From an uncultured Candidatus Saccharibacteria bacterium (GTDB lineage Bacteria; Patescibacteriota; Minisyncoccia; Minisyncoccales; GWA2-38-27), in the NCBI GenBank assembly GCA_964583485.1, contig CAZOVC010000002.1, forward strand, positions 2,959 through 66,958: a DNA stretch of 64,000 nt, written 5' to 3'. This document shows, one piece after another, positions 3,952 through 49,514 of this stretch. The position numbers were made by a program, and so were the translations under genes. Within the stretch, counting starts at the first letter, position 1. The number at the start of each line of letters is the position of its first letter. The notes under the pieces were generated by a model that worked only from the letters and a program-made list of their open reading frames with translations, was not told the DNA's origin and ran no database searches.

Positions 3952-5364
3952 TTATTTCTTAAAAACAATGAATTTATAACCCAGAAAGTTCCAAACCATA
4001 GAAAACATAGTAGCAATTAACGCTCCAACAGTTGCCCAAATCTTGGGAGAAATTCCAGCTTGAGGACCAATTAAATTTACCGCCAAAGAAGCAATTCCCA
4101 CATTTATTACCAGCCCAATCGCGCTTATTATTAAAAATTGCAAAAACTCTGTTCCAGTTTTTTCAACCTTTATCTTTTTAAAGGTCCAGAATTTATTCCA
4201 AAGAAAACTGTTAATTATGGCTATTAAGAAAGAAACTCCTTTAAAAACTGGATAAAAAAGACCAGCAGTAATTCCGGTTAAAAGAATCTGTAAATTAAGC
4301 GCTCCCCAATCAATCAAAGTATTGGAAATTCCTACGGTTGCAAATTTTCCAGCCTGAAAAATAACTGGAACCTTTTTTCCTAAAACATAGGTAATATAAA
4401 GAGAAATTGCAGCTGCAATTGGAACAATAACTGCTAAAAATAAACCCCCACACCAAAAATTTGGTAGTGGGGGTAAACCCAGATAAAGTCCCCAGGTCCA
4501 AAAATCAAGTTCTAAGGTTTTTAAAATTGTAAAAGCCAGCCAGGCAACCATCTCGCCGATAATTAAAGCAGAAATCAAATCAGTTTTTCTCCAAGTAGCT
4601 GATTCTGCTTTTTCTTCTTTTTTCTCATACTTTCCCAAAATCAGATTCTGTTTGATTTTGAATGTCTCAAAAAGCATTTTAACCATACTTTTAAATTTTA
4701 CTTTGCTTTGCGCGTCATTTACCCAGGTTATGGGAATTTCTTTAATTTTATAGCCCAGTTTTTTTGCTATAACCAGAACTTCTGGATCAAATCCAAAATG
4801 GCGAATAAAGATTCTGGAAAAAATATCTTGAGCCGCTTTTTCTTTAAAACCTTTGAAACCGCATTGAGTATCTTTAATTTCCCAAAGGCCAATAATTATT
4901 TTTCTAACTAATTTAAAACCTCCTCCCAAAATTACTTTTCTTATCCAGGGTTGAGGCACAGACAGAACCGCTCCCTTAATATCTCTTGAGCCAATAACAA
5001 TATCATATCCTGCTTCAAATTCCGGCCACATTTTCTCAACCTGATCAATTGAAGTTGAATTATCAGCATCAGTAAAAATTCTATATTCTCCCTTGGCTTC
5101 AAATATCCCCTGTTTTACTCCAAAGCCCTTGCCCAGACGTTCTTTGAACTCAAGGACTTTTAAGTTTTCTATCTCCGGCATCAAATTCTTTACCTTCTCA
5201 ACCGTTCTGTCGCTTGAACCATCGCTTACTACAATAATTTCAGAAGTATATATTTGCTTTTTCAAATAATTATTGATTTCTCGCAAAGTTTTGGGCAATC
5301 TTTTTTCTTCATTATAAGCCGGAATAATGACTGAAAGATAGGTTTTTTGATTTTGATTATCCAT
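3952..5364 (-). CDS. Polyprenyl-phosphate glycosyltransferase: GT2 catalytic domain fused to a C-terminal GtrA-like membrane domain
   Basis: N-terminus IIPAYNEE...VVSDGSSD is a GT2 signature. C-terminus has several TM helices ending NSFLWNKFWTFKK, a GtrA motif. Carries an in-frame palindromic insert at 4441-4477. Confidence 0.7.
   Translation of the reverse strand: MDNQNQKTYLSVIIPAYNEEKRLPKTLREINNYLKKQIYTSEIIVVSDGSSDRTVEKVKNLMPEIENLKVLEFKERLGKGFGVKQGIFEAKGEYRIFTDADNSTSIDQVEKMWPEFEAGYDIVIGSRDIKGAVLSVPQPWIRKVILGGGFKLVRKIIIGLWEIKDTQCGFKGFKEKAAQDIFSRIFIRHFGFDPEVLVIAKKLGYKIKEIPITWVNDAQSKVKFKSMVKMLFETFKIKQNLILGKYEKKEEKAESATWRKTDLISALIIGEMVAWLAFTILKTLELDFWTWGLYLGLPPLPNFWCGGLFLAVIVPIAAAISLYITYVLGKKVPVIFQAGKFATVGISNTLIDWGALNLQILLTGITAGLFYPVFKGVSFLIAIINSFLWNKFWTFKKIKVEKTGTEFLQFLIISAIGLVINVGIASLAVNLIGPQAGISPKIWATVGALIATMFSMVWNFLGYKFIVFKK
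4441..4477. repeat. Copy A of a bulged palindromic element (taaacccccacaccaaaaatttggtagtgggggtaaa), inserted in frame inside the GT2-GtrA coding sequence; encodes LPPLPNFWCGGL
   Basis: Nearly identical to 14700-14736 and degenerately to 42911-42946. All copies keep the same single-base bulge asymmetry (CACACC versus GGTAGTG). Confidence 0.6.
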
Positions 5365-9035: not shown

Positions 9036-10270
9036 ATTTTAAGAAAATCTACTATTTTTTTAGCCTGTTTTTTTGATATATTTATATGAGTAGGAAGATT
9101 TAATGTTTGCTTTGACAATTTTTCTGCCTTTGGGCAGGTGCCAAGCTTATAACCTACTCTATCTAAATTTGTATCATCTGGAGCAATCGGGCTTGTGTAC
9201 CAATCCCCTATTAAGATATTTTTTCTCCACATCTTTTTAATTATTTTATGAGCTTTGCTATGTTTTATTGTAAATCTTAAAAATATAGAATTATCTTTTG
9301 GAGGAAGTTTAAAAGAAGTATTTTTTAGATTTTCAAAAAAGAAATCAGCAATTTCCTGTCTGTGTTTATTAAACCTCTCTAATTTCTTAAATTGATTTAA
9401 GGCAAGAATTGCCAAGGCATTAGGCATTCTTTTTGGAAAATATGACGGCTTTCTGCCCTGTTTTTCCTTCCAATGGACTGCTTTAGACATAAAATGAAGC
9501 CATTGGAATATAACTAAGACATACTTCCCATTTATTCTATAACTGGGCAGAATAAAGCTCATAAATATGGGATGTAATAACTGTTGTTTAATCCAAAAAT
9601 ATGATGGATAACTAAACTTGTCCTGAGCTTGCTGAAGTTTTTCAGCAAGCGAAGGGTCATTAGTAACAACCATTCCTCCATATACAGAAGAAATTACCTT
9701 ATCTCTGGAAAAACTAAAGAAAGCAGCTTTACCAAAACTACCTACTTTTTGATTGTAGTATTCAGCTCCTAACGCATGAGCGCAGTCCTCAATTAATATT
9801 AAATTATTCTCTTGGGCAGTTTTTCTAATTTCATTCATATTAGCAGGAATTCCAAATGTATGTTGAACCATTATAGCTCTACTTTTATCACTTACCTTAT
9901 TTCTTAAATCTTCTATATCAATATTAAAAGTATTTTCATCGCAATCAACATAAACTGGCTTTAAGCCATTCCATAAAATAGGATTTACAGCAGCATTGCA
10001 AGTAAATGCCTGAAGCAAAACTTCGCTTCCAGGTTCTAAATTAAGTCCTCTCAAAATAGCCATTAAGCAAGCTCTCCCGCTATTAAAAGCAAAAGCATAT
10101 TTTACACCTAAATATTTTTTAAACTCGTTTTCCAATTCTTCAATTGCCTCGCCGCGTCTCCACTTCCATAGACAAAAAACCAATTTCAAAGCTAGCCAAA
10201 TATCATCTTTTTCTACATTTGGCGATAATGATATTGTAATTGGTTTAAGGTATTGACAAATTTTAAGCAT
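9026..10270 (-). CDS. DegT/DnrJ/EryC1/StrS-family PLP-dependent sugar aminotransferase
   Basis: FNSGRACLMA...SFSRDKVISS (PLP lysine), then YGGMVVTND. Confidence 0.7.
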   Translation of the reverse strand: MLKICQYLKPITISLSPNVEKDDIWLALKLVFCLWKWRRGEAIEELENEFKKYLGVKYAFAFNSGRACLMAILRGLNLEPGSEVLLQAFTCNAAVNPILWNGLKPVYVDCDENTFNIDIEDLRNKVSDKSRAIMVQHTFGIPANMNEIRKTAQENNLILIEDCAHALGAEYYNQKVGSFGKAAFFSFSRDKVISSVYGGMVVTNDPSLAEKLQQAQDKFSYPSYFWIKQQLLHPIFMSFILPSYRINGKYVLVIFQWLHFMSKAVHWKEKQGRKPSYFPKRMPNALAILALNQFKKLERFNKHRQEIADFFFENLKNTSFKLPPKDNSIFLRFTIKHSKAHKIIKKMWRKNILIGDWYTSPIAPDDTNLDRVGYKLGTCPKAEKLSKQTLNLPTHINISKKQAKKIVDFLKIWK

Positions 10271-10354
10271 TATGATATAATGTAGTTAGTAGAAAATAAG
10301 TTAATTGTAAAGTTATAAATTTGTTCACTAACAATTTGGAAAGGATAGATAACC

Positions 10355-10753
10355 ATGGAAAAATACAAAAAATTAGATTTTAGAATGACTCCAGCGCCGA
10401 ATGCTCAAATACAAAATGCTCATGAGGAATTAGAAAAAGCTTCTAAAGATGTAGACGAAAGATTCAATGCCTACGAGGAAACCTGTAAAAAAGTGGCTGA
10501 AACAGATTGGAATTTCTTACACCTTGGTGGACTTAAGGATAGACAAAAAGGACTGGAACTTCACAATTCTGTTGAAAAAACCCGCGAGGAAAGTCTTAAA
10601 GACGAAGAAAAAGCCCTTCAGGTCTACTTAGATGCTTGCAAGGTAAAAGCTGAAAAAATTAAGCTCCTTCATGGCACGATTTGTTTTTGTCAAGAAGCGA
10701 AAAAGGCCGGGTGGTTTAAGGGAAAATCTTGGTCCCCCTCTACAAAAGTGTGA
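10355..10753 (+). CDS. Hypothetical protein
   Basis: 132-aa ORF preceded by aaaggatag as RBS and followed by a terminator. Confidence 0.45.
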   Translation: MEKYKKLDFRMTPAPNAQIQNAHEELEKASKDVDERFNAYEETCKKVAETDWNFLHLGGLKDRQKGLELHNSVEKTREESLKDEEKALQVYLDACKVKAEKIKLLHGTICFCQEAKKAGWFKGKSWSPSTKV

Positions 10754-10777
10754 TCTTTCCATTTTATTCGGGTCATA

Positions 10778-10815
10778 AGGCGTCAAATTCTGTCAAAAGG
10801 ATTTGACGCCCTTTT
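10778..10815 (+). terminator. Rho-independent terminator (stem ggcgtcaaat/atttgacgcc then cttttatttt)
   Basis: Read from the sequence, directly downstream of the 10355..10753 gene. Confidence 0.5.
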
Positions 10816-10818
10816 ATT

Positions 10819-12150
10819 TTATTTTGAAGAACTAAAGAAATTAACTAAATCTTTCGGTACCCTACCTTCTAAAAGAACTACATCTCCATCTTTACAAAAT
10901 TCCTTTATTTTAGCAATAATATCTTCTGGATTTTCAATTAACAAAATGTTTTTGCTCTCTCCCTTTATTTCTTCAAAGTAATCTTTTGTTGTGATTATTG
11001 CTAAATCGCAAGTTTCTGCGATTTTTTTACCAATTCTTTTATGAATTTGCTTTGATACTTTTCCTAATTCTATTAAGCAAGGCATAACAATAACTCTTTT
11101 TCCTTGATAAAGTTTGAAATACTCTAAATCAGCAATTACTCCATCTGGATTTGCAGAATAAGAAGCGTCAAGAATAGTTAATCCATTGCTTTTCAAAAGC
11201 TTCATTCCTCCTTGTTCTGGTTTAATTTTCAAACAGGCCCTTGAAATTTCTACTAAACTCATTCCTAATTTTTTAGCACAGGATGCAGCCAGTAAAATAT
11301 TATTTATGTTGTGTTTCCCTAATAAATTAATCTTGAAATCTACTCCATCAACTTTGAAAGAAACAAACTCTTTTTCAACAACAATGTCTGTAGCAGTTAA
11401 ATCTAAATTATTATAATCTATTTTGACTTCTGAACACTCTAAAATCTCATTTTTGGCTTTTTTAATATTCTCTAAAGAGCCAAAAGTAGATAAATGTTGT
11501 TCATTTATGCCAGTTAATATGCCTATTTTTGGCTGAAGCATTTTGCAAACCTGTTTGATTTTTCCTCTTTCATAAGCTCCTATTTCAGCGATAAAAATCT
11601 GGTGAAAGAAACCGAGCTCCTTTAAAATTGTTTTAGCAATTCCTATTTCAGCATTTATATTCCTTTCAGTTTTTAAAACATTATACTTTTCAGAAAGAAT
11701 TATTGCTAAAAACTCTTTAGTTGAGCTCTTGCCGTAGCTTCCAGTAATGCCAATAACTATAAGATTTTTGAATTGTTCTCTTTTTTTCTTGGCTTTGTTT
11801 AAACTAATTTTTATCCAAATATTTGCAGGGATTTGAAACAATGAAATTAAAACTGAAATAAATATTGGCGCGAAAATAATTAAAAATACAAGTAAAAGTA
11901 AAGAGTAAAAATAAAATAAAATAAAAATTTCAAGCAATACTCCAAAAATTAAAATAACAATAACTTTTAAGGTTAATTTGGGATATCTAATACCATGAAA
12001 ACTAAAAAGAAACTTCCTTATTTTTTGCGTCTCAAAATGCGCTTTAAATCTTCCTAAATGATATTCTTTTAATTGCCAAAGCCAAACCCAAAAAACGAGC
12101 AGCTTTGTAAAAACCAAAAACCAAACAATGCTAATTAATATTTTTATCAT
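10819..12150 (-). CDS. murF: Mur ligase family protein, MurF-like, with an unusual N-terminal TM region of about 120 aa
   Basis: VIGITGSYGKSSTKEF P-loop of Mur ligases and a C-terminal DGDVVLLEGRV segment. Confidence 0.5.
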   Translation of the reverse strand: MIKILISIVWFLVFTKLLVFWVWLWQLKEYHLGRFKAHFETQKIRKFLFSFHGIRYPKLTLKVIVILIFGVLLEIFILFYFYSLLLLVFLIIFAPIFISVLISLFQIPANIWIKISLNKAKKKREQFKNLIVIGITGSYGKSSTKEFLAIILSEKYNVLKTERNINAEIGIAKTILKELGFFHQIFIAEIGAYERGKIKQVCKMLQPKIGILTGINEQHLSTFGSLENIKKAKNEILECSEVKIDYNNLDLTATDIVVEKEFVSFKVDGVDFKINLLGKHNINNILLAASCAKKLGMSLVEISRACLKIKPEQGGMKLLKSNGLTILDASYSANPDGVIADLEYFKLYQGKRVIVMPCLIELGKVSKQIHKRIGKKIAETCDLAIITTKDYFEEIKGESKNILLIENPEDIIAKIKEFCKDGDVVLLEGRVPKDLVNFFSSSK

Positions 12151-14138: not shown

Positions 14139-15629
14139 TTACTTTGGACGCATTGTAGGAAATAGAATTACTTCTTTTAACGAGTGCGAATCAGTTAATA
14201 AAGCTGTTAATCTGTCGATTCCCATTCCAAAGCCAGCAGCCGGAGGCATTCCATACTCCAGGGCCTCAATAAAGTCCTTGTCCATTCTCTGAGCTTGTTC
14301 AAAACCTTTTTTAAATATCTTTTCCTGCTCTTTAAATCTTTGCTCTTGAACAAGAGGATTATTTAATTCAGAAAAAGCTTTGACTAACTCAATTCCCATA
14401 GCAATAAATTGAAAGCTCGCTGATTTAGAAGGATTTTTATCTAATGGCTTTGCCAAAGGAAAAGTTTCTGCAGGATAATGGATAACAAATGTTGGCTGTT
14501 CTATTTTAGGCCTAATAACTTTTTTAAATATCTCATCAGTTATTTCAAACTTTCCTCCTTTGCTCTCTATGCCTAACTTTTTTGCTTCTTTTCTAAGAGC
14601 GTTCTCATTTATTTCCTCTAAATCAATTTTAGTGTGTTTTCTAAATATCTCATTAAATTCAACCCTTTTATACGGAGCCTTAAAGTCTAATCTCTTTCCT
14701 TTACCCCCACTACCAAAATTTTGGTGTGGGGGTTTATATTCAATAATTGTTTTATTAAATAAGTTTTTAATCACAAAAGCAAGCATTTTTTCTGTAAACT
14801 TCATCAGCTCTTTATAATCAGCATAAGCCCAATAAAACTCAAGCATTGTAAAATCAGGGTTATGAGCCCTATCTATTCCTTCATTTCTAAAGCATCTTCC
14901 TATTTCATATATTTTTTCAAACCCGCCTACTAAAAGACGTTTTAAATATAGTTCTAAAGATATTCTTAGATATAAGTCAATGTCTAAAGCATTTAAATGA
15001 GTTTTAAACGGCTTTGCCGTAGCTCCTCCATAAATTGGCTGTAAAATCGGCGTTTCTACTTCTAAAAACCCTTCTTTATCTAAAAATGACCTGATTTCTT
15101 TAATAATTCTTGAACGTAATTCAAACCTTTCTTTAACTTCAGGATTAAAAATCAAATCCAAGTATCTTTTGCGATAACGCTCTTCAACATCTTTTAATCC
15201 ATGCCATTTTTCAGGCAAAGGCAAAAGCGATTTGACCAGAATCTTGTAATCAGCAGCTTCTAAGGTTTTCTCTCCTTTTTTGGTTTTGAATAAAATCCCT
15301 CTTATTTCAATAAAATCGCCGATGTCAAAATTGTCCAGAAAAAACTGAAAACTCTTTTCTCCCAACCGGTCTTTTTTGAATAAAGTTTGGATTTGGGCTG
15401 CGCCGTCTTTAATGTGGGAGAAAACCAATCCGCCGTGCTGTCTCAAAGATATTATCCTGCCTGCTAAAATTATTTCTTTTTTCAGCCGAGCCAGTTTGCT
15501 AAAATCCTCAAGAGCTTGTTGGCAAGTATGGGTTCTTTTTGTCTGGCCTGGATAAGCCGAAAACCCGACATTCTCAATTGCCTTAAGTTTCTTTATTCTA
15601 TTTTTCCGAATTTCATCAATAGTCGCCAT
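14139..15629 (-). CDS. lysS: Lysyl-tRNA synthetase, class II; carries an in-frame palindromic insert
   Basis: CFRNEGIDRAHNPDFTMLEFYWAYADY motif 2 region and a GFGMGIDRL motif 3. Segment KPPHQNFGSGGKG is encoded by the palindromic element at 14700-14736. Confidence 0.88.
   Translation of the reverse strand: MATIDEIRKNRIKKLKAIENVGFSAYPGQTKRTHTCQQALEDFSKLARLKKEIILAGRIISLRQHGGLVFSHIKDGAAQIQTLFKKDRLGEKSFQFFLDNFDIGDFIEIRGILFKTKKGEKTLEAADYKILVKSLLPLPEKWHGLKDVEERYRKRYLDLIFNPEVKERFELRSRIIKEIRSFLDKEGFLEVETPILQPIYGGATAKPFKTHLNALDIDLYLRISLELYLKRLLVGGFEKIYEIGRCFRNEGIDRAHNPDFTMLEFYWAYADYKELMKFTEKMLAFVIKNLFNKTIIEYKPPHQNFGSGGKGKRLDFKAPYKRVEFNEIFRKHTKIDLEEINENALRKEAKKLGIESKGGKFEITDEIFKKVIRPKIEQPTFVIHYPAETFPLAKPLDKNPSKSASFQFIAMGIELVKAFSELNNPLVQEQRFKEQEKIFKKGFEQAQRMDKDFIEALEYGMPPAAGFGMGIDRLTALLTDSHSLKEVILFPTMRPK
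14700..14736. repeat. Copy B of the bulged palindromic element (tttacccccactaccaaaattttggtgtgggggttta), in frame inside lysS
   Basis: Its reverse complement matches copy A at 36 of 37 positions. Also explains the antisense ORF 14560..14817 containing PLPPLPKFWCGG. Confidence 0.6.
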
Positions 15630-15738
15630 TAACTAATTTTACCAAATAGCTAAAATAAAAACAAGGAACTAAGCTCGTTAAACTATAAAAACACCTTAAC
15701 TTTGCCATCACAATATTAAAGTGTTTCTTTTTCTTTAT

Positions 15739-15770
15739 GCCAAAAATTGTCCAATCGGACAATTTTTGGC
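15739..15770. promoter_or_regulatory. Palindrome gccaaaaattgtcc-aatc-ggacaatttttggc, immediately upstream of the cassette 1 promoter
   Basis: A paralogous palindrome, gccaaaaatccgacgatcgtcggatttttggc, sits upstream of cassette 2 at about 17264-17297. Confidence 0.45.
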
Positions 15771-15775
15771 ACACC

Positions 15776-15804
15776 TTGACAGGTTTGAATTAATATGATA
15801 TGCT
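15776..15804 (+). promoter_or_regulatory. Sigma-70-type promoter: TTGACA, 17-nt spacer, extended -10 TG-a-TATGCT (cassette 1)
   Basis: The promoter core is almost identical to the cassette 2 promoter at 17378-17406. Confidence 0.5.
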
Positions 15805-15896
15805 GTAAATAGTAAACCTCGTTAAAAAATGAGATTTTCTAACGGGGTAAAAAGAATAAATTCTTTGTTTAAAATTTTATTTGGAAAGGAAATAAA

Positions 15897-16292
15897 ATGA
15901 AATTGGCAAATGTTTATCCAGTAATAGCAGTAATAGTAATTTCTGTCTGTGCGGCTACATTCATTCATTTCATTTTTGTCCCCGAATTCAAGCAGCCCAA
16001 GTTACCGGACATACGCGTAAGCGTATCAAGAGGAAATCCTGAAGAGGACAAACTCGGAGAGATGACAGTCACTACTCACAACCGATGGGGAAAAAATAGA
16101 GTAGTTGTTTTCCACGATTATGGTTTTAATGGAAAGAACTATTGTTTTGACGGAATATTAGACGCGGTTGATGACCCTGAAGGATTAAAATACGGTCATA
16201 CAGATCGGAAAACATGGGAAGAAAGATTTTCTGAAGTTCTAAAAGAATACATAACCGGCAAAAGACCAAAATTCACAGAACCATCTCAATAG
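15897..16292 (+). CDS. Small secreted or membrane-anchored hypothetical protein (cassette 1 cargo)
   Basis: N-terminal TM helix VYPVIAVIVISVCAATFIHFIF. Flanked by the shared promoter and terminator modules. Confidence 0.5.
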   Translation: MKLANVYPVIAVIVISVCAATFIHFIFVPEFKQPKLPDIRVSVSRGNPEEDKLGEMTVTTHNRWGKNRVVVFHDYGFNGKNYCFDGILDAVDDPEGLKYGHTDRKTWEERFSEVLKEYITGKRPKFTEPSQ

Positions 16293-16351
16293 CACAAAAG
16301 CACAAAAAAAGACCCCTTATGAGTTTTACCCTCAAAAAAGGGTCGCAACAA

Positions 16352-16385
16352 AACGTCAAGTTCTACAAAGCTTGGCGTTTTTTTA
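16352..16385 (+). terminator. Rho-independent terminator aacgtcaagttctacaaagcttggcgttttttt (shared cassette 3' module, copy 1)
   Basis: A near-identical copy lies at 17826-17859. Confidence 0.5.
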
Positions 16386-16772
16386 TTAGCTTATTTTATT
16401 AATAATAAACTGGTTTGCTTTTTGGGTTGCTTCCAATGCTTTTTTGCATTCGTCTTTAGAATAAATCGCAACTTCAGAAGGATATCTTGTCTCAACATAA
16501 TATCTATTCAAAAAAGATACTTCTCTTGTTAATTCTTCGAAATCCTTATTTATTTCTTTGCAGAGATTTAAAAGCCGAATTAAATCATGAATTTTCGGAA
16601 ATTTATTCTTCTTAGAAATTAAAAATGCTTTAAGAGTTTTTTCTACTGTTTGATGACAATGAAAACATATAGAATCAGTAGGACCATTTTCTTTGAGAAG
16701 AATTTCTGCTGTTTTTAAATCATTTTGTGCTTTGAAAATCCATTCTTCAGGTTTTAAATTATTTTGCGGCAT
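16386..16772 (-). CDS. HEPN-domain toxin component (HepT-like)
   Basis: 128-aa ORF ending NRYYVETRYP, HEPN-like. Overlaps the upstream nucleotidyltransferase gene by 14 nt. Confidence 0.65.
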   Translation of the reverse strand: MPQNNLKPEEWIFKAQNDLKTAEILLKENGPTDSICFHCHQTVEKTLKAFLISKKNKFPKIHDLIRLLNLCKEINKDFEELTREVSFLNRYYVETRYPSEVAIYSKDECKKALEATQKANQFIINKIS

Positions 16773-17082
16773 AAATAGTTTTGCCTTGATTAATAATATC
16801 TTTGATAAAAAAGTCGCCTAAAGATAATCGTTTTTTTATCTCTTGAGGAGTATAGACCAAAATATCCAAAGCCATCTTTCTATCTAAAAGCATTCTATCT
16901 AATTCTAAATGACGTTTTGTTCTTGGTTTTTTGCTTTTTTTAATTACAAATAAATCTACATCACTATCTTCGTGAGGTTTTCCATAAACAAAACTGCCGT
17001 AGAGGATTATCTTCTCTGGTTTATACTTTTCTACAATCTGCTTAGCAATATTCTCAATCTCTTTTTGATGCAATTTGCTCAT
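16759..17082 (-). CDS. Nucleotidyltransferase antitoxin component (MntA-like)
   Basis: LYGSFVYGKPHEDSDVDLFV nucleotidyltransferase motif. Standard MNT-then-HEPN order. Confidence 0.7.
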   Translation of the reverse strand: MSKLHQKEIENIAKQIVEKYKPEKIILYGSFVYGKPHEDSDVDLFVIKKSKKPRTKRHLELDRMLLDRKMALDILVYTPQEIKKRLSLGDFFIKDIINQGKTIYAAK

Positions 17083-17377
17083 TATTTAATTCTACCAAAT
17101 AATATATTTTAGGTCAAAACCCTGTAGAGAAAATTTGATTTGCCCTGCAAGAAAAGATTTTCTAAAAGAAAATCTTTATCAAATTTCTTCTACGGGATCA
17201 AAAGAAAAAAAACAAGGAACTAATTATAAACTATTTTTTCATAAACCATCTTTATCTTTGTATGCCAAAAATCCGACGATCGTCGGATTTTTGGCACCGT
17301 CTCTTAAATTTCTTAATTTTTTGACTCTTAATCTCGACTCCTAATATAGACGGCCGTCTGTTTTGAGAGTCAAACTA

Positions 17378-17406
17378 TTGACAGGTTTGAACTAATATGA
17401 TATACT
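17378..17406 (+). promoter_or_regulatory. Sigma-70-type promoter: TTGACA, 17-nt spacer, TATACT (cassette 2)
   Basis: Paralogous to 15776-15804. Preceded by nested palindromes at 17264-17375. Confidence 0.5.
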
Positions 17407-17461
17407 GTAAGTAGTAAAAAAGAACTAAAAATCTTTATTCATAATTTGGAAGGGAATTGAA

Positions 17462-17758
17462 ATGAATGAAAAAAAGAGAATAATAATAGCAGGAGCAGCA
17501 AAAACAATAGGACTAATAGTAGTTATTCTTGCTATAACTATGTCTATAGCTATGTATTGCGACATTGATCCATTTGGACATAAATGTTTTTCTGCCGGTG
17601 ACCAATGGGGAAAACAAAATATCAACTTCTTCCATGATCCTAATGGCGAATTAGAAAAAGTTACTTATACTATTTATGTTGAACCGAACTCGCCGGATTG
17701 GGGAACATGGCAAAGAAGATTTTTGGAATTTCAACAAGAAAAAACTATAAACTGGTAG
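17462..17758 (+). CDS. Small secreted or membrane-anchored hypothetical protein (cassette 2 cargo, not recognisably related to cassette 1 cargo)
   Basis: 98-aa ORF with an N-terminal TM helix. RBS ggaaggg. Confidence 0.5.
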   Translation: MNEKKRIIIAGAAKTIGLIVVILAITMSIAMYCDIDPFGHKCFSAGDQWGKQNINFFHDPNGELEKVTYTIYVEPNSPDWGTWQRRFLEFQQEKTINW

Positions 17759-17825
17759 AAAAATGGAACCGGTTCGATAGCACAAAAAAGGCCCCTTGTG
17801 AGATACCCTCATAAGGGACTAAAAC

Positions 17826-17859
17826 AGAACGTCAGGTTCTACCAAGCTTGGCGTTTTTT
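17826..17859 (+). terminator. Rho-independent terminator aacgtcaggttctaccaagcttggcgttttttt (shared cassette 3' module, copy 2)
   Basis: Matches 16352-16385 at 32 of 34 positions. Confidence 0.5.
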
Positions 17860-18974
17860 TACTGGCTTAAATAAGTTACCATATAATCAGCGATTATTCT
17901 GGCAGCGTTAGGCCGGGAAAATTCTTTTGCTCTTTCTGTCATTTGTTTTAACCTTTCTGGCTGAGAAAATAAATTTTTAATTCTTTCTAAAACAAAATGC
18001 GGTCTTAAGTTTGCTTCTTCTATTACTAAACTAGCCCCATTTTCAGCATAAGCATAAGCATTTTTAACTTGATGATTTTGAGCTGATTCCGGCAAAGGAA
18101 CTAATATGCTTGGTTTTCCTATCAGCGCAATTTCAAAAATAGTTCCTGCTCCGGCCCTGCTAATAATCAAATCAGCTGCTGAATAAGCATTAGCTATTTC
18201 AATTTCATTTAAAAACGGGGAAGGATGATAATACCTTCTAAAGTCTTCTGTTATTACAACTTCCGCCTCTTTTCTTATCTGTTCAAAATTACTCTTGCCT
18301 GTTTGATGAATTATTTCATAATCTTTTAAAATATTGGGCAGAATTGACAATATTTTATCATTTATTCTTTGAGCGCCTTGAGAACCGCCTAAAATTAGAA
18401 TTACTGGTTTTTCTCCTGTTAAATTAAATAATTTCTTTGCTTCTTGTTTAGAGCCTTCTAAAATCTCTTTTCTCGCGGGATTGCCAATTGAAAGCATTTT
18501 TTTTGCTGGAAAGTATTCTGTCTTTTTAATAGAAAAAGAGATAAAAATCTCTAAAGCAAATCTGCCTGCTATTCTGTTAGCTAAACCAGGAGAAATATCT
18601 GATTCATGCAAAAAGATTGGAACCATTAAAATCCAACCAGAAATAGAAGCGGCTATTGATCCATATCCTCCTTTGCTGAAAATAACATCTGGGGAAATGA
18701 TAAAAATGTGATAAAAGGCCTGAAGAATTCCAATAGGAAGCTTAAATATATCAATAACATTCTTAAAAGAAAAATATCTTCTAATTTTGCCGGCTAAAAT
18801 TGTTTTTACCTCAACCCCCTCTTTCAAAAGAAGCTCTTTAGAAAATTTATCCTTAGGTCCTAAGTAAAAAAACTCAAAACCTGCATTAGGATAATTCTTC
18901 TTCATTTCTCTGATAACAGCGACTATTGGAAAAATATGACCAGCGGTTCCTCCGCCAGTAAATAGTATTTTCAT
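17859..18974 (-). CDS. murG: UDP-N-acetylglucosamine--N-acetylmuramyl-(pentapeptide) pyrophosphoryl-undecaprenol GlcNAc transferase
   Basis: MKILFTGGGTAGHIFPIVAV N-terminus. 371 aa. Confidence 0.88.
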   Translation of the reverse strand: MKILFTGGGTAGHIFPIVAVIREMKKNYPNAGFEFFYLGPKDKFSKELLLKEGVEVKTILAGKIRRYFSFKNVIDIFKLPIGILQAFYHIFIISPDVIFSKGGYGSIAASISGWILMVPIFLHESDISPGLANRIAGRFALEIFISFSIKKTEYFPAKKMLSIGNPARKEILEGSKQEAKKLFNLTGEKPVILILGGSQGAQRINDKILSILPNILKDYEIIHQTGKSNFEQIRKEAEVVITEDFRRYYHPSPFLNEIEIANAYSAADLIISRAGAGTIFEIALIGKPSILVPLPESAQNHQVKNAYAYAENGASLVIEEANLRPHFVLERIKNLFSQPERLKQMTERAKEFSRPNAARIIADYMVTYLSQ

Positions 18975-22153: not shown

Positions 22154-22265
22154 TATTTCAGTATATTAAAAAAACATTCATTTGACAAATTTTGGCAAAA
22201 AAGATAAACTCTTTAAGTAGACGTTAACAAGTTAAAATTTGTTCTTTAAAATAGAAAGGTTAAAT

Positions 22266-22952
22266 ATGGTGAATAGAATAAGAAGAATAATAAGAAGAAA
22301 GAAAAGAAACGCCCGCTATAGACTAAATATATTTTGGTTTAAAAAAAAGAAAGAATTCAGTATAGATAATTTAATTATTATTACCAATCCTGTGTACACT
22401 GATGATTTTAGAATAAGAAAAAGAGCGCTTAGAGAATTCTTAGCAAGAACGGATAAGGTGTTTGAAGAATTTTCTCGCATGCTTAACGCGGCTCGGGACA
22501 TCTTGGAGAAAGACGAACCGCTAAAACAAGGGTTCTGGGATCAATTTTTAGGCATACGCACTGTTGATAATTTTGCCGAATTGATTTACGCGGGCGAAGC
22601 TATGGCGGCCGAAAGATTCACTCAAGACATCAAGAGCGGAGTTATAATTCCTAAACAGGCTAAAAAGGTATGGATATCCCTTTTTATAAAATTTACGGAT
22701 GAAAATTCGAGAAAGAATATATGGAATAAAATTAAGCGGTTTAATCCGGAGGATAGAGAAATAAAAAGCCTATTTGATATGGATGGAAATCAAGAAATTA
22801 TGCGCTCGCTTCCCAAAATAGCCGCCGAAGTAAGAAAGATTCTTAAACAGAATAAAAAAATAGAAGATAAAAGAAAAGGACTTCTTAGCGATCTAAGAAA
22901 ATTTATTGACGCCGCAATAAAAGAAAAAGAGGCAAAACAAAAGCAGGAATAA
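22266..22952 (+). CDS. Hypothetical basic protein (alternative start at 22239)
   Basis: Arg/Lys-rich N-terminus. No family recognised. Confidence 0.4.
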   Translation: MVNRIRRIIRRKKRNARYRLNIFWFKKKKEFSIDNLIIITNPVYTDDFRIRKRALREFLARTDKVFEEFSRMLNAARDILEKDEPLKQGFWDQFLGIRTVDNFAELIYAGEAMAAERFTQDIKSGVIIPKQAKKVWISLFIKFTDENSRKNIWNKIKRFNPEDREIKSLFDMDGNQEIMRSLPKIAAEVRKILKQNKKIEDKRKGLLSDLRKFIDAAIKEKEAKQKQE

Positions 22953-22977: not shown

Positions 22978-24036
22978 TTAGCCGAGGAGACGAATGGCGA
23001 CGCCGATGATTGCCATTACAACTCCAATTACCCAAAAGCGCATTGTGATTTTAGAATAAGGCCAGCCCCTGGCTTCAAAATGATGATGAATCGGAGCTGC
23101 TAAGAAAACTTTTTTCTTTCTGAATTTTTTTGACAAAAGTTGAATAATTACAGAACCAGACTCAATAACAAGCAAAAAACCGATTATTGGCAAAACTAAA
23201 ATAGAATCAGTTAAAAAAGCAACTACTGTTAAAGCGCAGCAAAGGCCCAGCATTCCGGTCTCTCCCATATAAAATCTGGCCGGCGGGATATTAAACCATA
23301 AGAAAGCTAAAATTGCTCCGGCGATTACAGCGCAAAAAGCAGCTAAATCAATCTGGCCGTTAAACAAAGCAATACCTCCAAAAGCAGCAAAGATTACAGC
23401 AAAAGCTCCTCCAGCCAAACCGTCTAAACCATCAATTACTCCTCCGCTGTAGGTTGCCAGCATTATTAAAACAAAAAGAGGAACATACCAGAGACCTATA
23501 AAGAAATCTCCATTCCCGGGAATATGAATAGTGCTGTATCCTAATTTGTAATAAAACCAATAAGCTCCGATTAACCCGATTAAAGTAACTAAGATTAATC
23601 TGTATTTTAACATTAAGCCGCCTCCGATATATTTACCCATTTTTAACACTTGCAAAACGTCATCTAAAAGCCCTACTAAAGAAGCTGCAATTAAGGCAAA
23701 AAGGGGCAGCCAGGTTTGAGACCTGCTTAAAAAGTTTAGCTTTTTAAACCACCAAATATCTGTTTTAGACAATAAGAAAAAAAGAACAGCTAAGATTAAA
23801 ACACTTGTCCAAATAAGAAGTCCTCCAAATCTTGGAACATGGACTTCTTTTTCAGAATGAAATTTCTTAAAGAAAAAAAGCTCTTTATTATCTATTGATT
23901 TAGTTCTAATTTCTTTTCTCCAAAGCTTGTACTTATACAAGAAATGAGTAAGAATCGGGGTCAACCAAAAAGCTAAAATAAAGCTCATTGCTCCAAGCAT
24001 AAAAATTTTAATAACATTTATCGTAATCTCGTTCAT
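22978..24036 (-). CDS. mraY: Phospho-N-acetylmuramoyl-pentapeptide transferase
   Basis: 352-aa polytopic protein with C-terminal LAAPIHHHFE motif. Confidence 0.88.
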   Translation of the reverse strand: MNEITINVIKIFMLGAMSFILAFWLTPILTHFLYKYKLWRKEIRTKSIDNKELFFFKKFHSEKEVHVPRFGGLLIWTSVLILAVLFFLLSKTDIWWFKKLNFLSRSQTWLPLFALIAASLVGLLDDVLQVLKMGKYIGGGLMLKYRLILVTLIGLIGAYWFYYKLGYSTIHIPGNGDFFIGLWYVPLFVLIMLATYSGGVIDGLDGLAGGAFAVIFAAFGGIALFNGQIDLAAFCAVIAGAILAFLWFNIPPARFYMGETGMLGLCCALTVVAFLTDSILVLPIIGFLLVIESGSVIIQLLSKKFRKKKVFLAAPIHHHFEARGWPYSKITMRFWVIGVVMAIIGVAIRLLG

Positions 24037-24075: not shown

Positions 24076-24104
24076 TTGACAAATTTAAACAATGGGTGTA
24101 TAAT
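24076..24104 (+). promoter_or_regulatory. Consensus sigma-70 promoter: TTGACA, 17-nt spacer, TATAAT
   Basis: Perfect hexamers, about 65 nt upstream of the 24171 start. Confidence 0.55.
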
Positions 24105-24170
24105 GTAGGTAGTTATTTCCACCATAATTAAGAAACTGGAAAGAAAAACTCTTTTTTAGGAGACATAACA

Positions 24171-24545
24171 ATGGTAGAAGAAAAAGCTCTTTCAATGAAG
24201 GAAGCGAAAGAAAAGTTGGCTGAACTGAAAAAACATATGCCTAAAGCCAGCGGTGAAATTGTCTACAAATTCGGACGTTTTCTCGCAGAACGCCTTAATC
24301 CTCAATTAGTCCCGCAGGGCTTTGTAATGGCTTGTGAACTCGCTCTTTACGATTTGCAAGAGGGAATAGATGGCTACAGTAATCAACCCATTCAAAGCAG
24401 CCTTGTTGGCTATCCACCAATGATTTATGGTCTTCTCCGTATGGAGATTCCGAGAATCGCCGAGGCAATCTTCCCAGAGGACTTTGCAACAAGCGTAAAG
24501 ACTATATTTGAGGAAATCAAGGCAACAATGCGAGAAAAAAAGTAG
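24171..24545 (+). CDS. Hypothetical protein
   Basis: 124-aa ORF with RBS aggagac. Followed by two hairpin terminators at 24571-24607 and 24631-24660. Confidence 0.45.
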   Translation: MVEEKALSMKEAKEKLAELKKHMPKASGEIVYKFGRFLAERLNPQLVPQGFVMACELALYDLQEGIDGYSNQPIQSSLVGYPPMIYGLLRMEIPRIAEAIFPEDFATSVKTIFEEIKATMREKK

Positions 24546-24570
24546 TCTTCAACAATGCACTAAAAGGCTT

Positions 24571-24607
24571 TGCCAGTTGTCCCAAACAACTGGCTTTTTT
24601 TATACAA
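24571..24607 (+). terminator. Rho-independent terminator (gccagttgt/caactggc then T7)
   Basis: Read from the sequence. Confidence 0.5.
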
Positions 24608-24872: not shown

Positions 24873-25823
24873 CTATCTAATTGCGTTGATGAATTTGCGT
24901 GTTTCTGCGAAGCGGTCTTCGGCGCCTAAAACAATACTAACAAAATAACTTCCTTCTTCTTCTGGATTATCTAAAACCAAAAGCAAACAACCGCCAGCTT
25001 CAATACCCCAACCGGTCTTTCCTCCAATTATCTCTGGAATTTCTCTTAAAAGTTCATTAGTATTTTCAGGAATAAAGTGATGAAACGTATTATCTAAGTT
25101 TAAAACTTCATAAGATTGATTGGTTGTGATTTCAAAAATTTGAGGATAATTTACCAATATATATTTTGCAAGTTTCACAATATCTCTAACAGTTGAAACA
25201 TTTTTTAATTCTTCGGGATTATCCGGCTCAAGGCCAGTAGGATTAACAAAATAAGTGTTTTCAAGCCCTATTTTTTTAGAATAAAGATTCATTAACTCAA
25301 CAAATCCTTGCCTGCCAATCGGTTCAGTTAAAGCAAAAGCGGCATCATTGCTTGACTCAATCAATGCGATATACAAAAGGTTTTTAACTGACAAGCTCTC
25401 ACCTATTTTTAATTCTCCATATTTAGATTTGCCTTCCTGCTCTACTGCTTCTTTCGTTATTTTAACTGGTTGAGATTCAGTATAAACTTCATCAAGATCA
25501 AAAACTACCAAAGCTGTCATTAGTTTAGTTAAAGAAGCAATGGCCAATGATTCTTGAGGGTCTTTTTCAAATAAAATCTTCTCCTGACCATTTTCATTAA
25601 TCTTAACTAAAATTGCGGCTTTGGCATTAATTTCTAAAGATTTAAAGCGTTGCTGAAGCTCTTTTTCTAATTTTAATTCTTCGGTCTGCCTATTTGAAAT
25701 TCTTAAACTTCTGTTTAATTCTTCTTCAAACCAAGAATCTTGTAGATTTTCTGCCAAAACATTCATTCCCCACCAAAAAGGCAGGCTCAAAACAAGAGAA
25801 ATTAATAAAATTTTTAATCTCAT
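24873..25823 (-). CDS. D-alanyl-D-alanine carboxypeptidase (S11, PBP5/6-like)
   Basis: SxxK (ASLTK), SxN (SSND) and KTG (GGKTGWG) motifs, with an N-terminal signal sequence. Confidence 0.7.
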   Translation of the reverse strand: MRLKILLISLVLSLPFWWGMNVLAENLQDSWFEEELNRSLRISNRQTEELKLEKELQQRFKSLEINAKAAILVKINENGQEKILFEKDPQESLAIASLTKLMTALVVFDLDEVYTESQPVKITKEAVEQEGKSKYGELKIGESLSVKNLLYIALIESSNDAAFALTEPIGRQGFVELMNLYSKKIGLENTYFVNPTGLEPDNPEELKNVSTVRDIVKLAKYILVNYPQIFEITTNQSYEVLNLDNTFHHFIPENTNELLREIPEIIGGKTGWGIEAGGCLLLVLDNPEEEGSYFVSIVLGAEDRFAETRKFINAIR

Positions 25824-33361: not shown

Positions 33362-33433
33362 CCTTGCTTATTGGAGGGAGATGGAATCGAACCATCGACC
33401 TGTCGTCTAAGACGACCTGCTCTCCCAACTGAG
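33362..33433 (-). tRNA. tRNA gene, 72 nt; anticodon loop reads UCUUAGA, so anticodon UUA (candidate ochre-suppressor tRNA); identity needs confirmation
   Basis: The minus strand reads GGGGGGA-TA-GCTC-AGTTGGGA-GAGC-A-GGTCG-TCTTAGA-CGACA-GGTC-GATGG-TTCGATT-CCATC-TCCCTCC-A. The acceptor stem pairs 7/7 with one G-U, the D stem is GCTC/GAGC, and the T arm is GATGG/CCATC with a TTCGATT loop. Position 33 is C and 27:43 is G:A, both unusual, so the anticodon register is uncertain. Confidence 0.7.
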
Positions 33434-33468
33434 CTATCCCCCCGATTTAAGGTACTACTACTATTATT

Positions 33469-49375: not shown

Positions 49376-49514
49376 TTATCTCCTAAAAAGTCCAGATAAA
49401 AGCAGTGGATCAAAAACCGCCAATTAGGCGATTTTTGATGCGGCTCGGTCAGGAGTTGTTTTAAGTTAAAATGAGACACAGAAAGCGATATTTTGAACTG
49501 TCTCATTTGCTGTA

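Follow-up and report, generated by a model that had tools for sequence, protein, structure and literature searches.

The region between lysS and murG in the 64,000-nucleotide (nt) stretch of DNA analysed here ("the window"; positions 2,959 to 66,958 of contig CAZOVC010000002.1, assembly GCA_964583485.1) is probably a hot spot of autonomous, moron-like mini-transcription units that are exchanged by homologous recombination, a reading to which we assign a probability of about 60%. The interval measures 2.2 kb and carries four genes, encoding a 131-amino acid (aa) protein, a HEPN-domain protein, a minimal nucleotidyltransferase (MNT) and a 98-aa protein. Each unit, or cassette, would comprise a near-consensus sigma-70 promoter with an extended -10 element, a 5' untranslated region (UTR) with a Shine-Dalgarno (SD) sequence, one small open reading frame (ORF) and a two-hairpin intrinsic terminator, and the units would sit antisense, exactly at the gene-gene junctions of a cell-wall/aminoacyl-tRNA-synthetase array of Nealsonbacteria-like Patescibacteria. 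The locus would keep the 5' and 3' frames of a unit while the ORF between them is replaced, most likely by homologous recombination between the frames or the flanking core genes, with alleles coming from related strains after DNA uptake. The inserted block would re-equip the downstream gene of the array, giving lysS a leaderless promoter and DegT a start codon inside the cassette promoter. In the window, two old allelic types of one transmembrane (TM) protein family would stand in tandem, their frames homogenised, probably by gene conversion, and an MNT-HEPN toxin-antitoxin (TA) pair would lie between them, having captured the ancestral lysS promoter and ATG. The anatomy of the cassettes can be read directly, and homologous recombination is the exchange mechanism that we infer.

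The host array has the context murD-ftsW-murG-lysS-serS and consists of tightly packed, co-directional cell-wall and aminoacyl-tRNA-synthetase genes. Relatives were gathered in two steps, by a promoter-pattern scan and then by way of lysS homologs and their contigs, and the array was recovered from about a dozen related genomes (loci labelled L015 and L021-L032). LysS is 75-89% identical to that of the window in the genomes where this was measured, and the nearest named relatives of the lysS product belong to Candidatus Nealsonbacteria and other Patescibacteria metagenome-assembled genomes. At least 10 assemblies, made independently from different samples, have the layout of the window, which is therefore no assembly artefact. 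All of the cassettes (11/11) run antisense to the array. The units of the window and the genes that flank the interval are as follows.

14139-15629, minus strand: lysS, the left neighbour of the interval.
15776-15896, plus strand: 5' frame of unit 1, with -35 TTGACA at 15776-15781 and -10 TATGCT at 15799-15804 with TG (nhmmer E = 2e-12); it also has a TAGTA initiator-like motif, a 5' UTR with a unit-specific hairpin at 15817-15847, AAAGAAT..ATTCTTT at 15851-15866 and the ribosome-binding site TTTGGAAAGGA.
15897-16292, plus strand: cargo 1, 131 aa, an N-terminal TM helix and a small alpha/beta domain.
16293-16386, plus strand: 3' frame of unit 1 (AGCACAAAA), with hairpin 1 at 16311-16344 and the terminator stem and U-run at 16350-16384 (z = -4.6).
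17378-17461, plus strand: 5' frame of unit 2, with TTGACA-17-TATACT (score 11/12) and a 5' UTR with AAAGAACTAAAAATCTTTATTCATAATTTGGAAGGGA.
17462-17758, plus strand: cargo 2, a 98-aa TM protein and diverged paralog of cargo 1.
17759-17860, plus strand: 3' frame of unit 2, with hairpin 1 at 17792-17817 and the terminator and U-run at 17827-17860 (z = -5.1).
17859-18974, minus strand: murG, the right neighbour, with its stop codon at 17859.
10253-10820, plus strand: unit 3, at the junction of a Mur-ligase gene and the gene of a DegT-type aminotransferase (the Mur-ligase/DegT junction), with its promoter at 10253-10281, ribosome-binding site AATTTGGAAAGGA at 10333, ORF at 10355-10753 and terminator at 10779-10820.

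The promoter modules of units 1 and 2 (15776-15816 and 17378-17418) are 93% identical and are predicted to be TTGACA-17-TATGCT/TATACT promoters with an extended -10 TG. The 3' modules (16347-16393 and 17823-17869) are 89% identical. An earlier note on this DNA had described three repeated modules, namely an upstream palindrome, a shared promoter and a shared 3' terminator, and all three hold up: each lies where the note had placed it, occurs only there in the 64 kb, and is non-random. The 3' module is longer than the note had it, extending over 96 nt at 81% identity, and is predicted to fold as an upstream hairpin followed by a 12-13 bp terminator stem and a U-run (z = -4.6 to -5.3). A separate TTGACA-17-TAnnnT promoter is predicted for every unit, with an extended -10 and a score of 10-11/12. 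When nhmmer profiles of the 5' frame (from the -35 to the ATG) and the 3' frame (from the stop codon to the U-run) were run against 216 kb of sequence, including the window, the whole-frame profiles matched only cassettes, with E-values of about 1e-8 to 1e-23; the frames of unit 3 were matched with E = 1e-10 (5') and 2e-7 (3').

The replacement of the ORF was seen in an all-against-all BLASTN comparison of the cassettes, in which those with unrelated cargo have only their ends in common. Between L015 and L026, positions 1-70 match at 84.5% identity and a further 72 nt match at 93%, starting 2 nt past the stop codon of L015, with nothing between; the 29 nt of hairpin 1 are identical in the two despite their different cargos. 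L023 (142 aa) and L030 (a TM-family member) have positions 1-100 in common, and then everything from the first nt past the L023 stop codon. L015 also matches unit 2 of the window over 70 nt at 88.6% and in the terminator, and the 5' frames of these two units, which precede unrelated ORFs, are 87-89% identical over 70-77 nt. Homology ends near the start codon and restarts right after the stop codon. No similarity between the cargos of unrelated-cargo cassettes was found by BLASTP, or by tblastn in any reading frame. A frameshifted origin from the TM family, for the divergent central part of the L026 ORF and for the cargo of L015, was considered too and rejected, as tblastn gave no match in any frame.

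Identity between frames is 85-93%, whereas the four-fold degenerate sites in lysS and murG of these pairs of genomes reach 60-79%; the frames are thus either constrained or recently exchanged. Within the window, the frames of units 1 and 2 (93% and 89%) are closer to each other than are orthologous frames, which suggests gene conversion between them; no alignable 3' frame was found between unit 2 and its ortholog in L032. This apparent homogenisation is the best internal evidence that the frames recombine.

Unit 3 carries an ORF of 132 aa without a TM helix and with no similarity to the other cargos. The promoter/initiator motif TATGATATnnTGTAnnTAGTA occurs at three sites in the window (0.2 expected), including unit 3, and unit 3 also has the AATTTGGAARGGA ribosome-binding region and a related CGTCAA..TTGACG terminator. 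The murG/lysS junction was found in the following states.

L024 and L025: 1 nt between the genes.
L022 and L027: about 155 nt, with a lysS promoter and no cassette.
L028 and L029: a promoter, about 60-70 nt and a two-hairpin terminator, with no ORF.
L015: one cassette, with a soluble 107-aa cargo.
L026: one cassette, with a 92-aa cargo.
L021: one cassette (a 119-aa family member) and HicB-HicA.
L023: three same-strand genes.
Window: two cassettes and MNT-HEPN.

The same conserved flanking genes thus enclose at least five different states, with no mobility genes, in genomes with 72-89% identical LysS (75-89% where it was measured), and the earlier note's prediction that this junction would be empty in relatives came true in some of them (L024 and L025, at 1 nt). 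At the Mur-ligase/DegT junction, the genes overlap by 4-10 nt in the empty state (L021, L022, L024 and L028), and an antisense cassette is present in the window (132 aa), L023 (142 aa) and L030/L031 (a TM-family member). A third junction, murD/murI, holds another TM-family member in L029, so that one cargo family is found at three different junctions of the array. (The L026 cargo matches this family in the TM helix and the last few codons only.) Flanking-gene homology by itself cannot explain how the frames and the cargo family came to occupy several junctions.

Other genes and remnants of similar placement were noted in the array. The Mur-ligase/DegT junction of L027 (10800-11048) holds a relic with a 34-codon hydrophobic ORF (MIRIFYSKKERKFWLDLLILTVGIILFFILIHYI) and the terminator GTGCCAtttttaaaaacTGGCACtttttt, the arms of which recall the window palindromes described below. 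A fourth antisense singleton in the window, at 24076-24600, consists of an ORF of 124 aa (24171-24545) behind the promoter TTGACAaatttaaacaatgggtgTATAATgtaggtagtta, with a terminator to itself (gccagttgtcccaaacaactggcttttttt), and lies between an mraY-like gene (22978-24036) and a gene at 24873-25823, both on the minus strand. Its frames are unlike those of the three cassettes, and nhmmer did not pick them up; in L029, this junction is occupied by a same-strand gene of 72 aa. The minus-strand array also encloses, at 22182-22952, a plus-strand ORF of 237 aa with the promoter TTGACAaatttt.. upstream. A gene of 195-220 aa on the opposite strand is conserved there in L022, L025, L027, L028 and L029, and this could be an insertion of similar style that is old and has become fixed.

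The earlier note had taken the 131-aa and 98-aa proteins to be unrelated. They are not: cargos 1 and 2 align colinearly at 27% identity (E = 1e-5), with WGK..FHD..TW..RF in common, and a 45-nt stretch of their DNA is 76% identical. A profile of the two ORFs, searched exhaustively against 1.84 billion representative proteins, retrieved a small, coherent family of 21 matches, laid out as an N-terminal TM helix followed by ..RWG..F.DYGFDGTLD.V..DPNSPDW..W..RY.E.R.E.TTG.KP. A word-indexed search with the 131-aa protein returned only the protein itself, and the family appeared solely in the exhaustive profile search. The note's proposal that the flanks are retained while the payload is exchanged is therefore upheld by the relatives and by unit 3, but not by the two copies from which it had been drawn, which carry homologous cargo.

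Each of the two types has an ortholog elsewhere: cargo 1 in the 119-aa protein of L021 (52% identity) and cargo 2 in P0008, which adjoins murG in L032 (68% identity). For unit 1 and its L021 ortholog, the ratio of nonsynonymous to synonymous divergence (dN/dS) is 0.54 at dS 0.53, compared to 0.11 at dS 0.54 for lysS of the same pair; for unit 2 and its L032 ortholog it is 0.34 at dS 1.20, compared to 0.14 at dS 1.17 for murG. The dN/dS values of 0.34-0.54, together with dS values like those of the adjacent core genes, indicate that both ORFs are genuine coding genes, and the cargo genes of the window have evolved at three to five times the rate of the genes beside them. Because cargo dS equals that of the adjacent core genes, both types are old and were inherited with the locus, and the tandem pair is not a recent local duplication.

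These data bear on the simplest alternative, a local tandem duplication of a small gene with its promoter and terminator, followed by divergence of the coding sequences and a chance insertion of the TA pair. The tandem arrangement, the homology of the proteins, the nearly identical frames and the presence of one layout in all contigs of this population would all fit such an event, which the earlier note had set against its own proposal. Nevertheless, we consider it unlikely. It is contradicted by the old split between the types, each of which has its ortholog elsewhere at the dS of the flanking gene, and relatives with each type singly were found (L021 and L032). Frames that are 93% and 89% identical around coding sequences of 27% aa identity would need gene conversion in any case, and duplication leaves the unrelated cargos in the same frames (L015, L026, L023 and unit 3 of the window) unexplained.

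An AlphaFold2 model of the 131-aa protein (predicted local distance difference test score, 75.7) shows a TM helix, a four-stranded sheet and a C-terminal helix, and had no match in the PDB. No significant match to Pfam, PHROGs or PADLOC was obtained for any cargo protein. We considered a type IV pilin-like identity and discarded it: the prepilin N_methyl domain (PF07963) was matched in 2 of 19 family members (best E = 3e-5), neither of them a window protein, and the modelled fold is only loosely pilin-like. A type I toxin reading was also set aside, given the length of the proteins (92-146 aa), their predicted folded ectodomain and the lack of an antisense RNA signal. The cargos, with a G+C content of 0.34-0.39, do not stand out from the window as a whole (0.346), and lower values (0.28-0.30) were seen solely in the TA pair. 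The cargos are fast-evolving accessory proteins, often with a predicted surface anchor, and a role in envelope, host or phage interaction would be speculation.

The two-hairpin 3' frame raises the question of whether a small RNA, either this structure or the ORF-less frames, is the primary product, with the ORFs as passengers. The ORF-less frames of L028 (5831-5960) and L029 (395-530) consist of a consensus promoter, about 60-70 nt and the two-hairpin module, and each is a candidate for an antisense small RNA of about 90 nt or for a deletion remnant. The 3' frame is structured, with z-scores of -4.6 to -5.3 and compensatory changes in 4 of 17 pairs, and it is the best-conserved part of the cassette (93% between L015 and L026). 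However, the covariation term is modest (-1.3 kcal/mol), and no Rfam family was matched at the gathering score by the window, the region or the ORF-less frames. The ORFs have strong SD sequences, are conserved across the family and have dN/dS below 1, and the ORF-less versions are possibly just deletion remnants. We therefore give this alternative a low probability.

Several points weigh against the reading of the region as a hot spot of exchanged mini-transcription units. The sample is small, at 11 cassettes from about a dozen genomes. For the arrival of a cassette at a new junction, no recombinase, terminal repeats or target-site duplications were found. Recombination between frames would follow from the mosaic boundaries, but at any one junction the pattern would look no different if exchange ran through the core genes on either side. 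The independent transcription of the units, their start sites, the leaderless starts and the terminators are predictions from sequence, and no Pfam, PHROG, PADLOC or PDB-fold match points to a function for the cargos. Furthermore, TTGACA..TATAAT followed by xxxTAGTA is also found ahead of a tRNA gene and others (2622, 24076 and 33496). The promoter core and SD are partly generic, and part of the likeness between 5' frames would thus reflect a shared consensus rather than descent.

Taken to its limit, this last point would make the flanks generic strong expression signals that resemble each other by convergence, with no cassette system at all. Consistent with this, TAGTA after the -10 and TTGACAAATTT recur at unrelated promoters of the window, including that of the tRNA gene. 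In the genome-wide promoter-pattern scan, true homology was found only in L015 among 10 matches, the others being generic promoters in Firmicutes and in other lineages of the candidate phyla radiation (CPR). Likewise, a scan of viral contigs in IMG/VR with the terminator pattern gave 63 matches, all generic hairpins, and the 5' UTR pattern gave one chance match; no true frames were found by either scan. However, the viral matches cover the terminator stem alone, at about 22 bits compared to 60-78 bits for true frames, and the other promoters of the window scored worse than E = 10 against the frame profile, which as a whole matches cassettes only. The likeness also extends to parts outside the consensus, such as the promoter spacer GGTTTGAAYTAATATGA, the 5' UTR stretch AAAGAACTAAAAATCTTTATTCAYAATTT and the identical 29-nt hairpin 1 of L015 and L026. 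Convergence is thus a poor explanation of the frames, and we consider that it has little chance of being correct.

The initiator-like motif was noted for itself. (A/T)TAGTA(G/A) stands about 5-10 nt after the -10 at 2622(-), 10253(+), 15776(+), 17378(+), 24076(+), 33496(-) and 43544(-), and the promoter of the tRNA gene at 33372-33443 has it too. It probably serves around the start of transcription as a signal specific to this lineage.

Two palindromes lie upstream of the promoters of units 1 and 2.

15738-15771, no strand: palindrome 1, an A-tract, GC stem and T-tract, between the divergent lysS and cassette promoters.
17263-17296, no strand: palindrome 2, an inverted repeat of 17+17 nt (100%), with the same outer arms as palindrome 1 and a different, compensated core.

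The form TGCCAAAAAT-N14-ATTTTTGGCA occurs twice in the 64 kb, where 0.05 occurrences would be expected by chance. The cores differ at 9 of 14 positions and are self-complementary in both copies, so that both palindromes fold as perfect hairpins, with z-scores of -8.4 (palindrome 1, -22.5 kcal/mol) and -8.7 (palindrome 2). A near-identical palindrome lies between the divergent lysS and cassette promoters of L026, which lacks the TA pair, and another lies 3' of hicA in L021. Most cassettes, including those of L015, L023 and L030 and unit 3 of the window, have none. Palindromes of the same A-tract/stem/T-tract shape are also found at 1532-1557 and 49411-49437 (CAAAAATCTTTATATAAAGATTTTTA and CAAAAACCGCCAATTAGGCGATTTTTG), and this shape is a general style of predicted bidirectional terminators in this genome. 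The palindromes would then be bidirectional terminators or insulators that are carried along in some alleles. Two further structures were seen near palindrome 2, one an imperfect long hairpin just upstream of the captured promoter of MNT (arms 17121-17139 and 17178-17196, 84% complementary), the other a palindrome at 17336-17371, between palindrome 2 and promoter 2. Neither is present in unit 1 or in the relatives.

The conserved outer arms and variable, compensated cores had led the earlier note to compare the palindromes loosely to attC sites. This reading did not survive closer inspection: the palindromes sit 5' of the promoter, whereas an attC site would lie 3' of the ORF; most cassettes lack them, and they have the shape of terminators and contain no GTTRRRY core. 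No integrase Pfam families were found among the genes called within +/-4-6 kb at about 14 loci. A system of the integron kind, with the palindromes or else the terminator hairpins as attC-type sites for a site-specific recombinase, would also fit the close tracking of ORF boundaries by cargo replacement, the single-ORF units, and the varying payload at a fixed locus with imperfect palindromes nearby. In contrast to integron cassettes, however, every cassette here has its own predicted promoter, the palindromes are optional and recur in the same shape elsewhere (e.g., at 49411-49437), and no integrase or other recombinase is annotated within about 6 kb of any locus. We regard an integron-like system as very improbable.

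The HEPN/MNT pair that the earlier note had placed between lysS and murG was verified by Pfam matches and coordinates. The note's suggestion that recombination at the shared terminator introduced this pair along with the second cassette would be compatible with the arrangement seen. The pair, the two copies of the lysS upstream region and the associated spacer segment are as follows.

16386-16772, minus strand: HEPN-domain protein, putative toxin, 128 aa (Pfam PF05168, E = 4.8e-31).
16759-17082, minus strand: MNT protein, 107 aa (Pfam PF18765 and PF01909, E = 1e-12).
17083-17119, minus strand: ancestral leaderless lysS promoter, now ahead of MNT-HEPN, with -35 TTGACC at 17112-17117, -10 TAGAAT at 17089-17094, 6 nt and ATG.
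15630-15647, minus strand: present lysS promoter-proximal segment, TGG-TAAAAT, with the -10 at 15636-15641, 6 nt and ATG at 15629; leaderless by prediction.
15654-15672 (copy 1) and 17205-17223 (copy 2), plus strand: spacer segment AAACAAGGAACTAA, 95% identical between copies.

MNT lies upstream of HEPN and shares 14 nt with it; the stop codon of HEPN directly adjoins the U-run of the unit 1 terminator. The MNT protein has the GSx10DxD motif (GSFVYGKPHEDSDVD) and matches PDC-S09 and PDC-M05A in PADLOC. No Rx4-6H motif was found in the HEPN protein by a regular-expression search, and it may have a non-canonical active site or be catalytically inactive. TA pairs are mobile and favour intergenic hot spots. 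Small overlapping genes, MNT upstream of HEPN and clear Pfam matches are what this pair has in common with other MNT-HEPN modules; it differs from them in the HEPN protein without Rx4-6H by pattern search and in its predicted captured leaderless lysS promoter.

That promoter scores 10/12 with TG, and the 40 nt at 17080-17119 match the region upstream of lysS in L026 and L027 at 97.5% identity. In L022, L026 and L027, this region reads TTGACC-17-TAGAAT-6 nt-ATG, from which a leaderless mRNA is predicted. The match indicates that the TA pair sits exactly on the ancestral lysS promoter and ATG. The last 22 nt or so before the start codons of lysS and MNT are repeated (15627-15648 and 17080-17101), and the segment at lysS is a second, partly similar copy of the promoter, 91% identical over 22 nt to the lysS upstream region of L026/L022. 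Both genes have, at 15627-15644 and 17082-17117, a -10 (TAAAAT or TAGAAT) that is preceded by TGG and ends 6 nt ahead of the ATG, with no SD sequence, and are apparently leaderless. The AAACAAGGAACTAA spacer segment is also present upstream of lysS in L021, L015, L028 and L029. L021 has a HicB-HicA pair at the place equivalent to that of MNT-HEPN. Immediately upstream of its hicB, at 4330-4410, a 19-codon remnant ORF of lysS (MAAIDEIRKNKELKKFDTRR*) is found together with a copy of about 30 nt of upstream sequence; the remnant copies differ at codon 3 (GCT vs ACT), and the duplication is therefore old or imported.

Wherever the Mur-ligase/DegT junction is filled, DegT begins with M-x-K-(I/F)-C-Q, and this N-terminus corresponds to the reverse complement of the -35 region (TTGACA) of the cassette. 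In the window, the DegT start codon (10270, minus strand) lies within the spacer of the unit 3 promoter, and the first six codons come from the reverse complement of the -35 and spacer. The same overlap is found at the DegT starts of L023 (10735), L030 (3933) and L027 (11048). On the minus strand of unit 3, CATTAT at -12..-7 would set a leaderless DegT start at the ATG, and the unit 3 promoter is possibly bidirectional.

The units bear a likeness to several known systems. Phage morons are described, in the part of PMC2920897 that cites Hendrix et al., as extra genes with their own promoter and terminator between adjacent genes. The units here are similar in being single genes with a predicted near-consensus promoter and intrinsic terminator, inserted between genes that are contiguous in relatives (murG/lysS, 1 nt; Mur ligase/DegT, 4-10 nt overlap), with different inserts at one hot spot across genomes and TA modules among them. 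Unlike morons, they are chromosomal, lying in the cell-wall/lysS/serS array of a CPR bacterium, with no PHROG match and with frames that are absent from the IMG/VR scans. Their cargo G+C content is not distinctive (0.34-0.39 vs 0.346), they are always antisense, and their combination of unrelated cargos with homologous UTR frames falls outside the moron definition.

The minimal mobile elements of Neisseria (Saunders & Snyder 2002; Snyder 2007), in the definition quoted in PMC3787668, are likewise sites where gene content varies among close relatives while particular flanking genes are conserved. They have no mobility genes, and their exchange is presumed, as here, to occur by homologous recombination after DNA uptake. 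They differ in that the present units bring their own conserved promoter/5' UTR and 3' UTR frames. A second difference is that one set of frames and one cargo family are distributed over several junctions here.

In the "upstream homology box" families of Borrelia (ospE/ospF/elp/erp), a conserved promoter and leader are joined to divergent or unrelated small surface-protein ORFs, and recombination has been proposed as the source of variants. The Borrelia genes lie on cp32 prophage plasmids with conservation on the 5' side only, and the organism and sequences differ; here, there is a conserved 3' frame as well, and the units interrupt a core operon in antisense. For these families, PMC10016077 cites Marconi et al. 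1996 and Sung et al. 2000. The locus is thus a blend of morons, minimal mobile elements and the Borrelia families, and a member of none. A shallow search of the literature on Nealsonbacteria gave no description of such cassettes.

A more far-reaching proposal, which we put forward tentatively as possible rather than probable, is that the conserved 5' and 3' UTRs are portable homology arms of an undescribed, recombinase-free cassette system in CPR bacteria, for which the ORF-less frames would be landing pads. If so, the job of an integron would be done by expression signals and homologous recombination alone, among strains and junctions, and the interrupted operon would be supplied with replacement promoters and start codons. 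Frames acting as recombination arms would also offer a handle for finding the fast-evolving, probably surface-exposed accessory proteome of these bacteria in metagenomes, and for designing expression cassettes for episymbionts.

CPR bacteria, or Patescibacteria, have tiny, streamlined genomes with few recognisable mobile elements, and the acquisition and turnover of their accessory genes are poorly understood. The locus described here presents a concrete route for such turnover, in which antisense mini-genes with conserved flanks and replaceable cargo are placed between essential genes, with TA modules at the same hot spots. The rewriting of the starts of neighbouring genes, through capture of a leaderless promoter or a start codon inside the cassette promoter, would be how insertions into the operon are tolerated.

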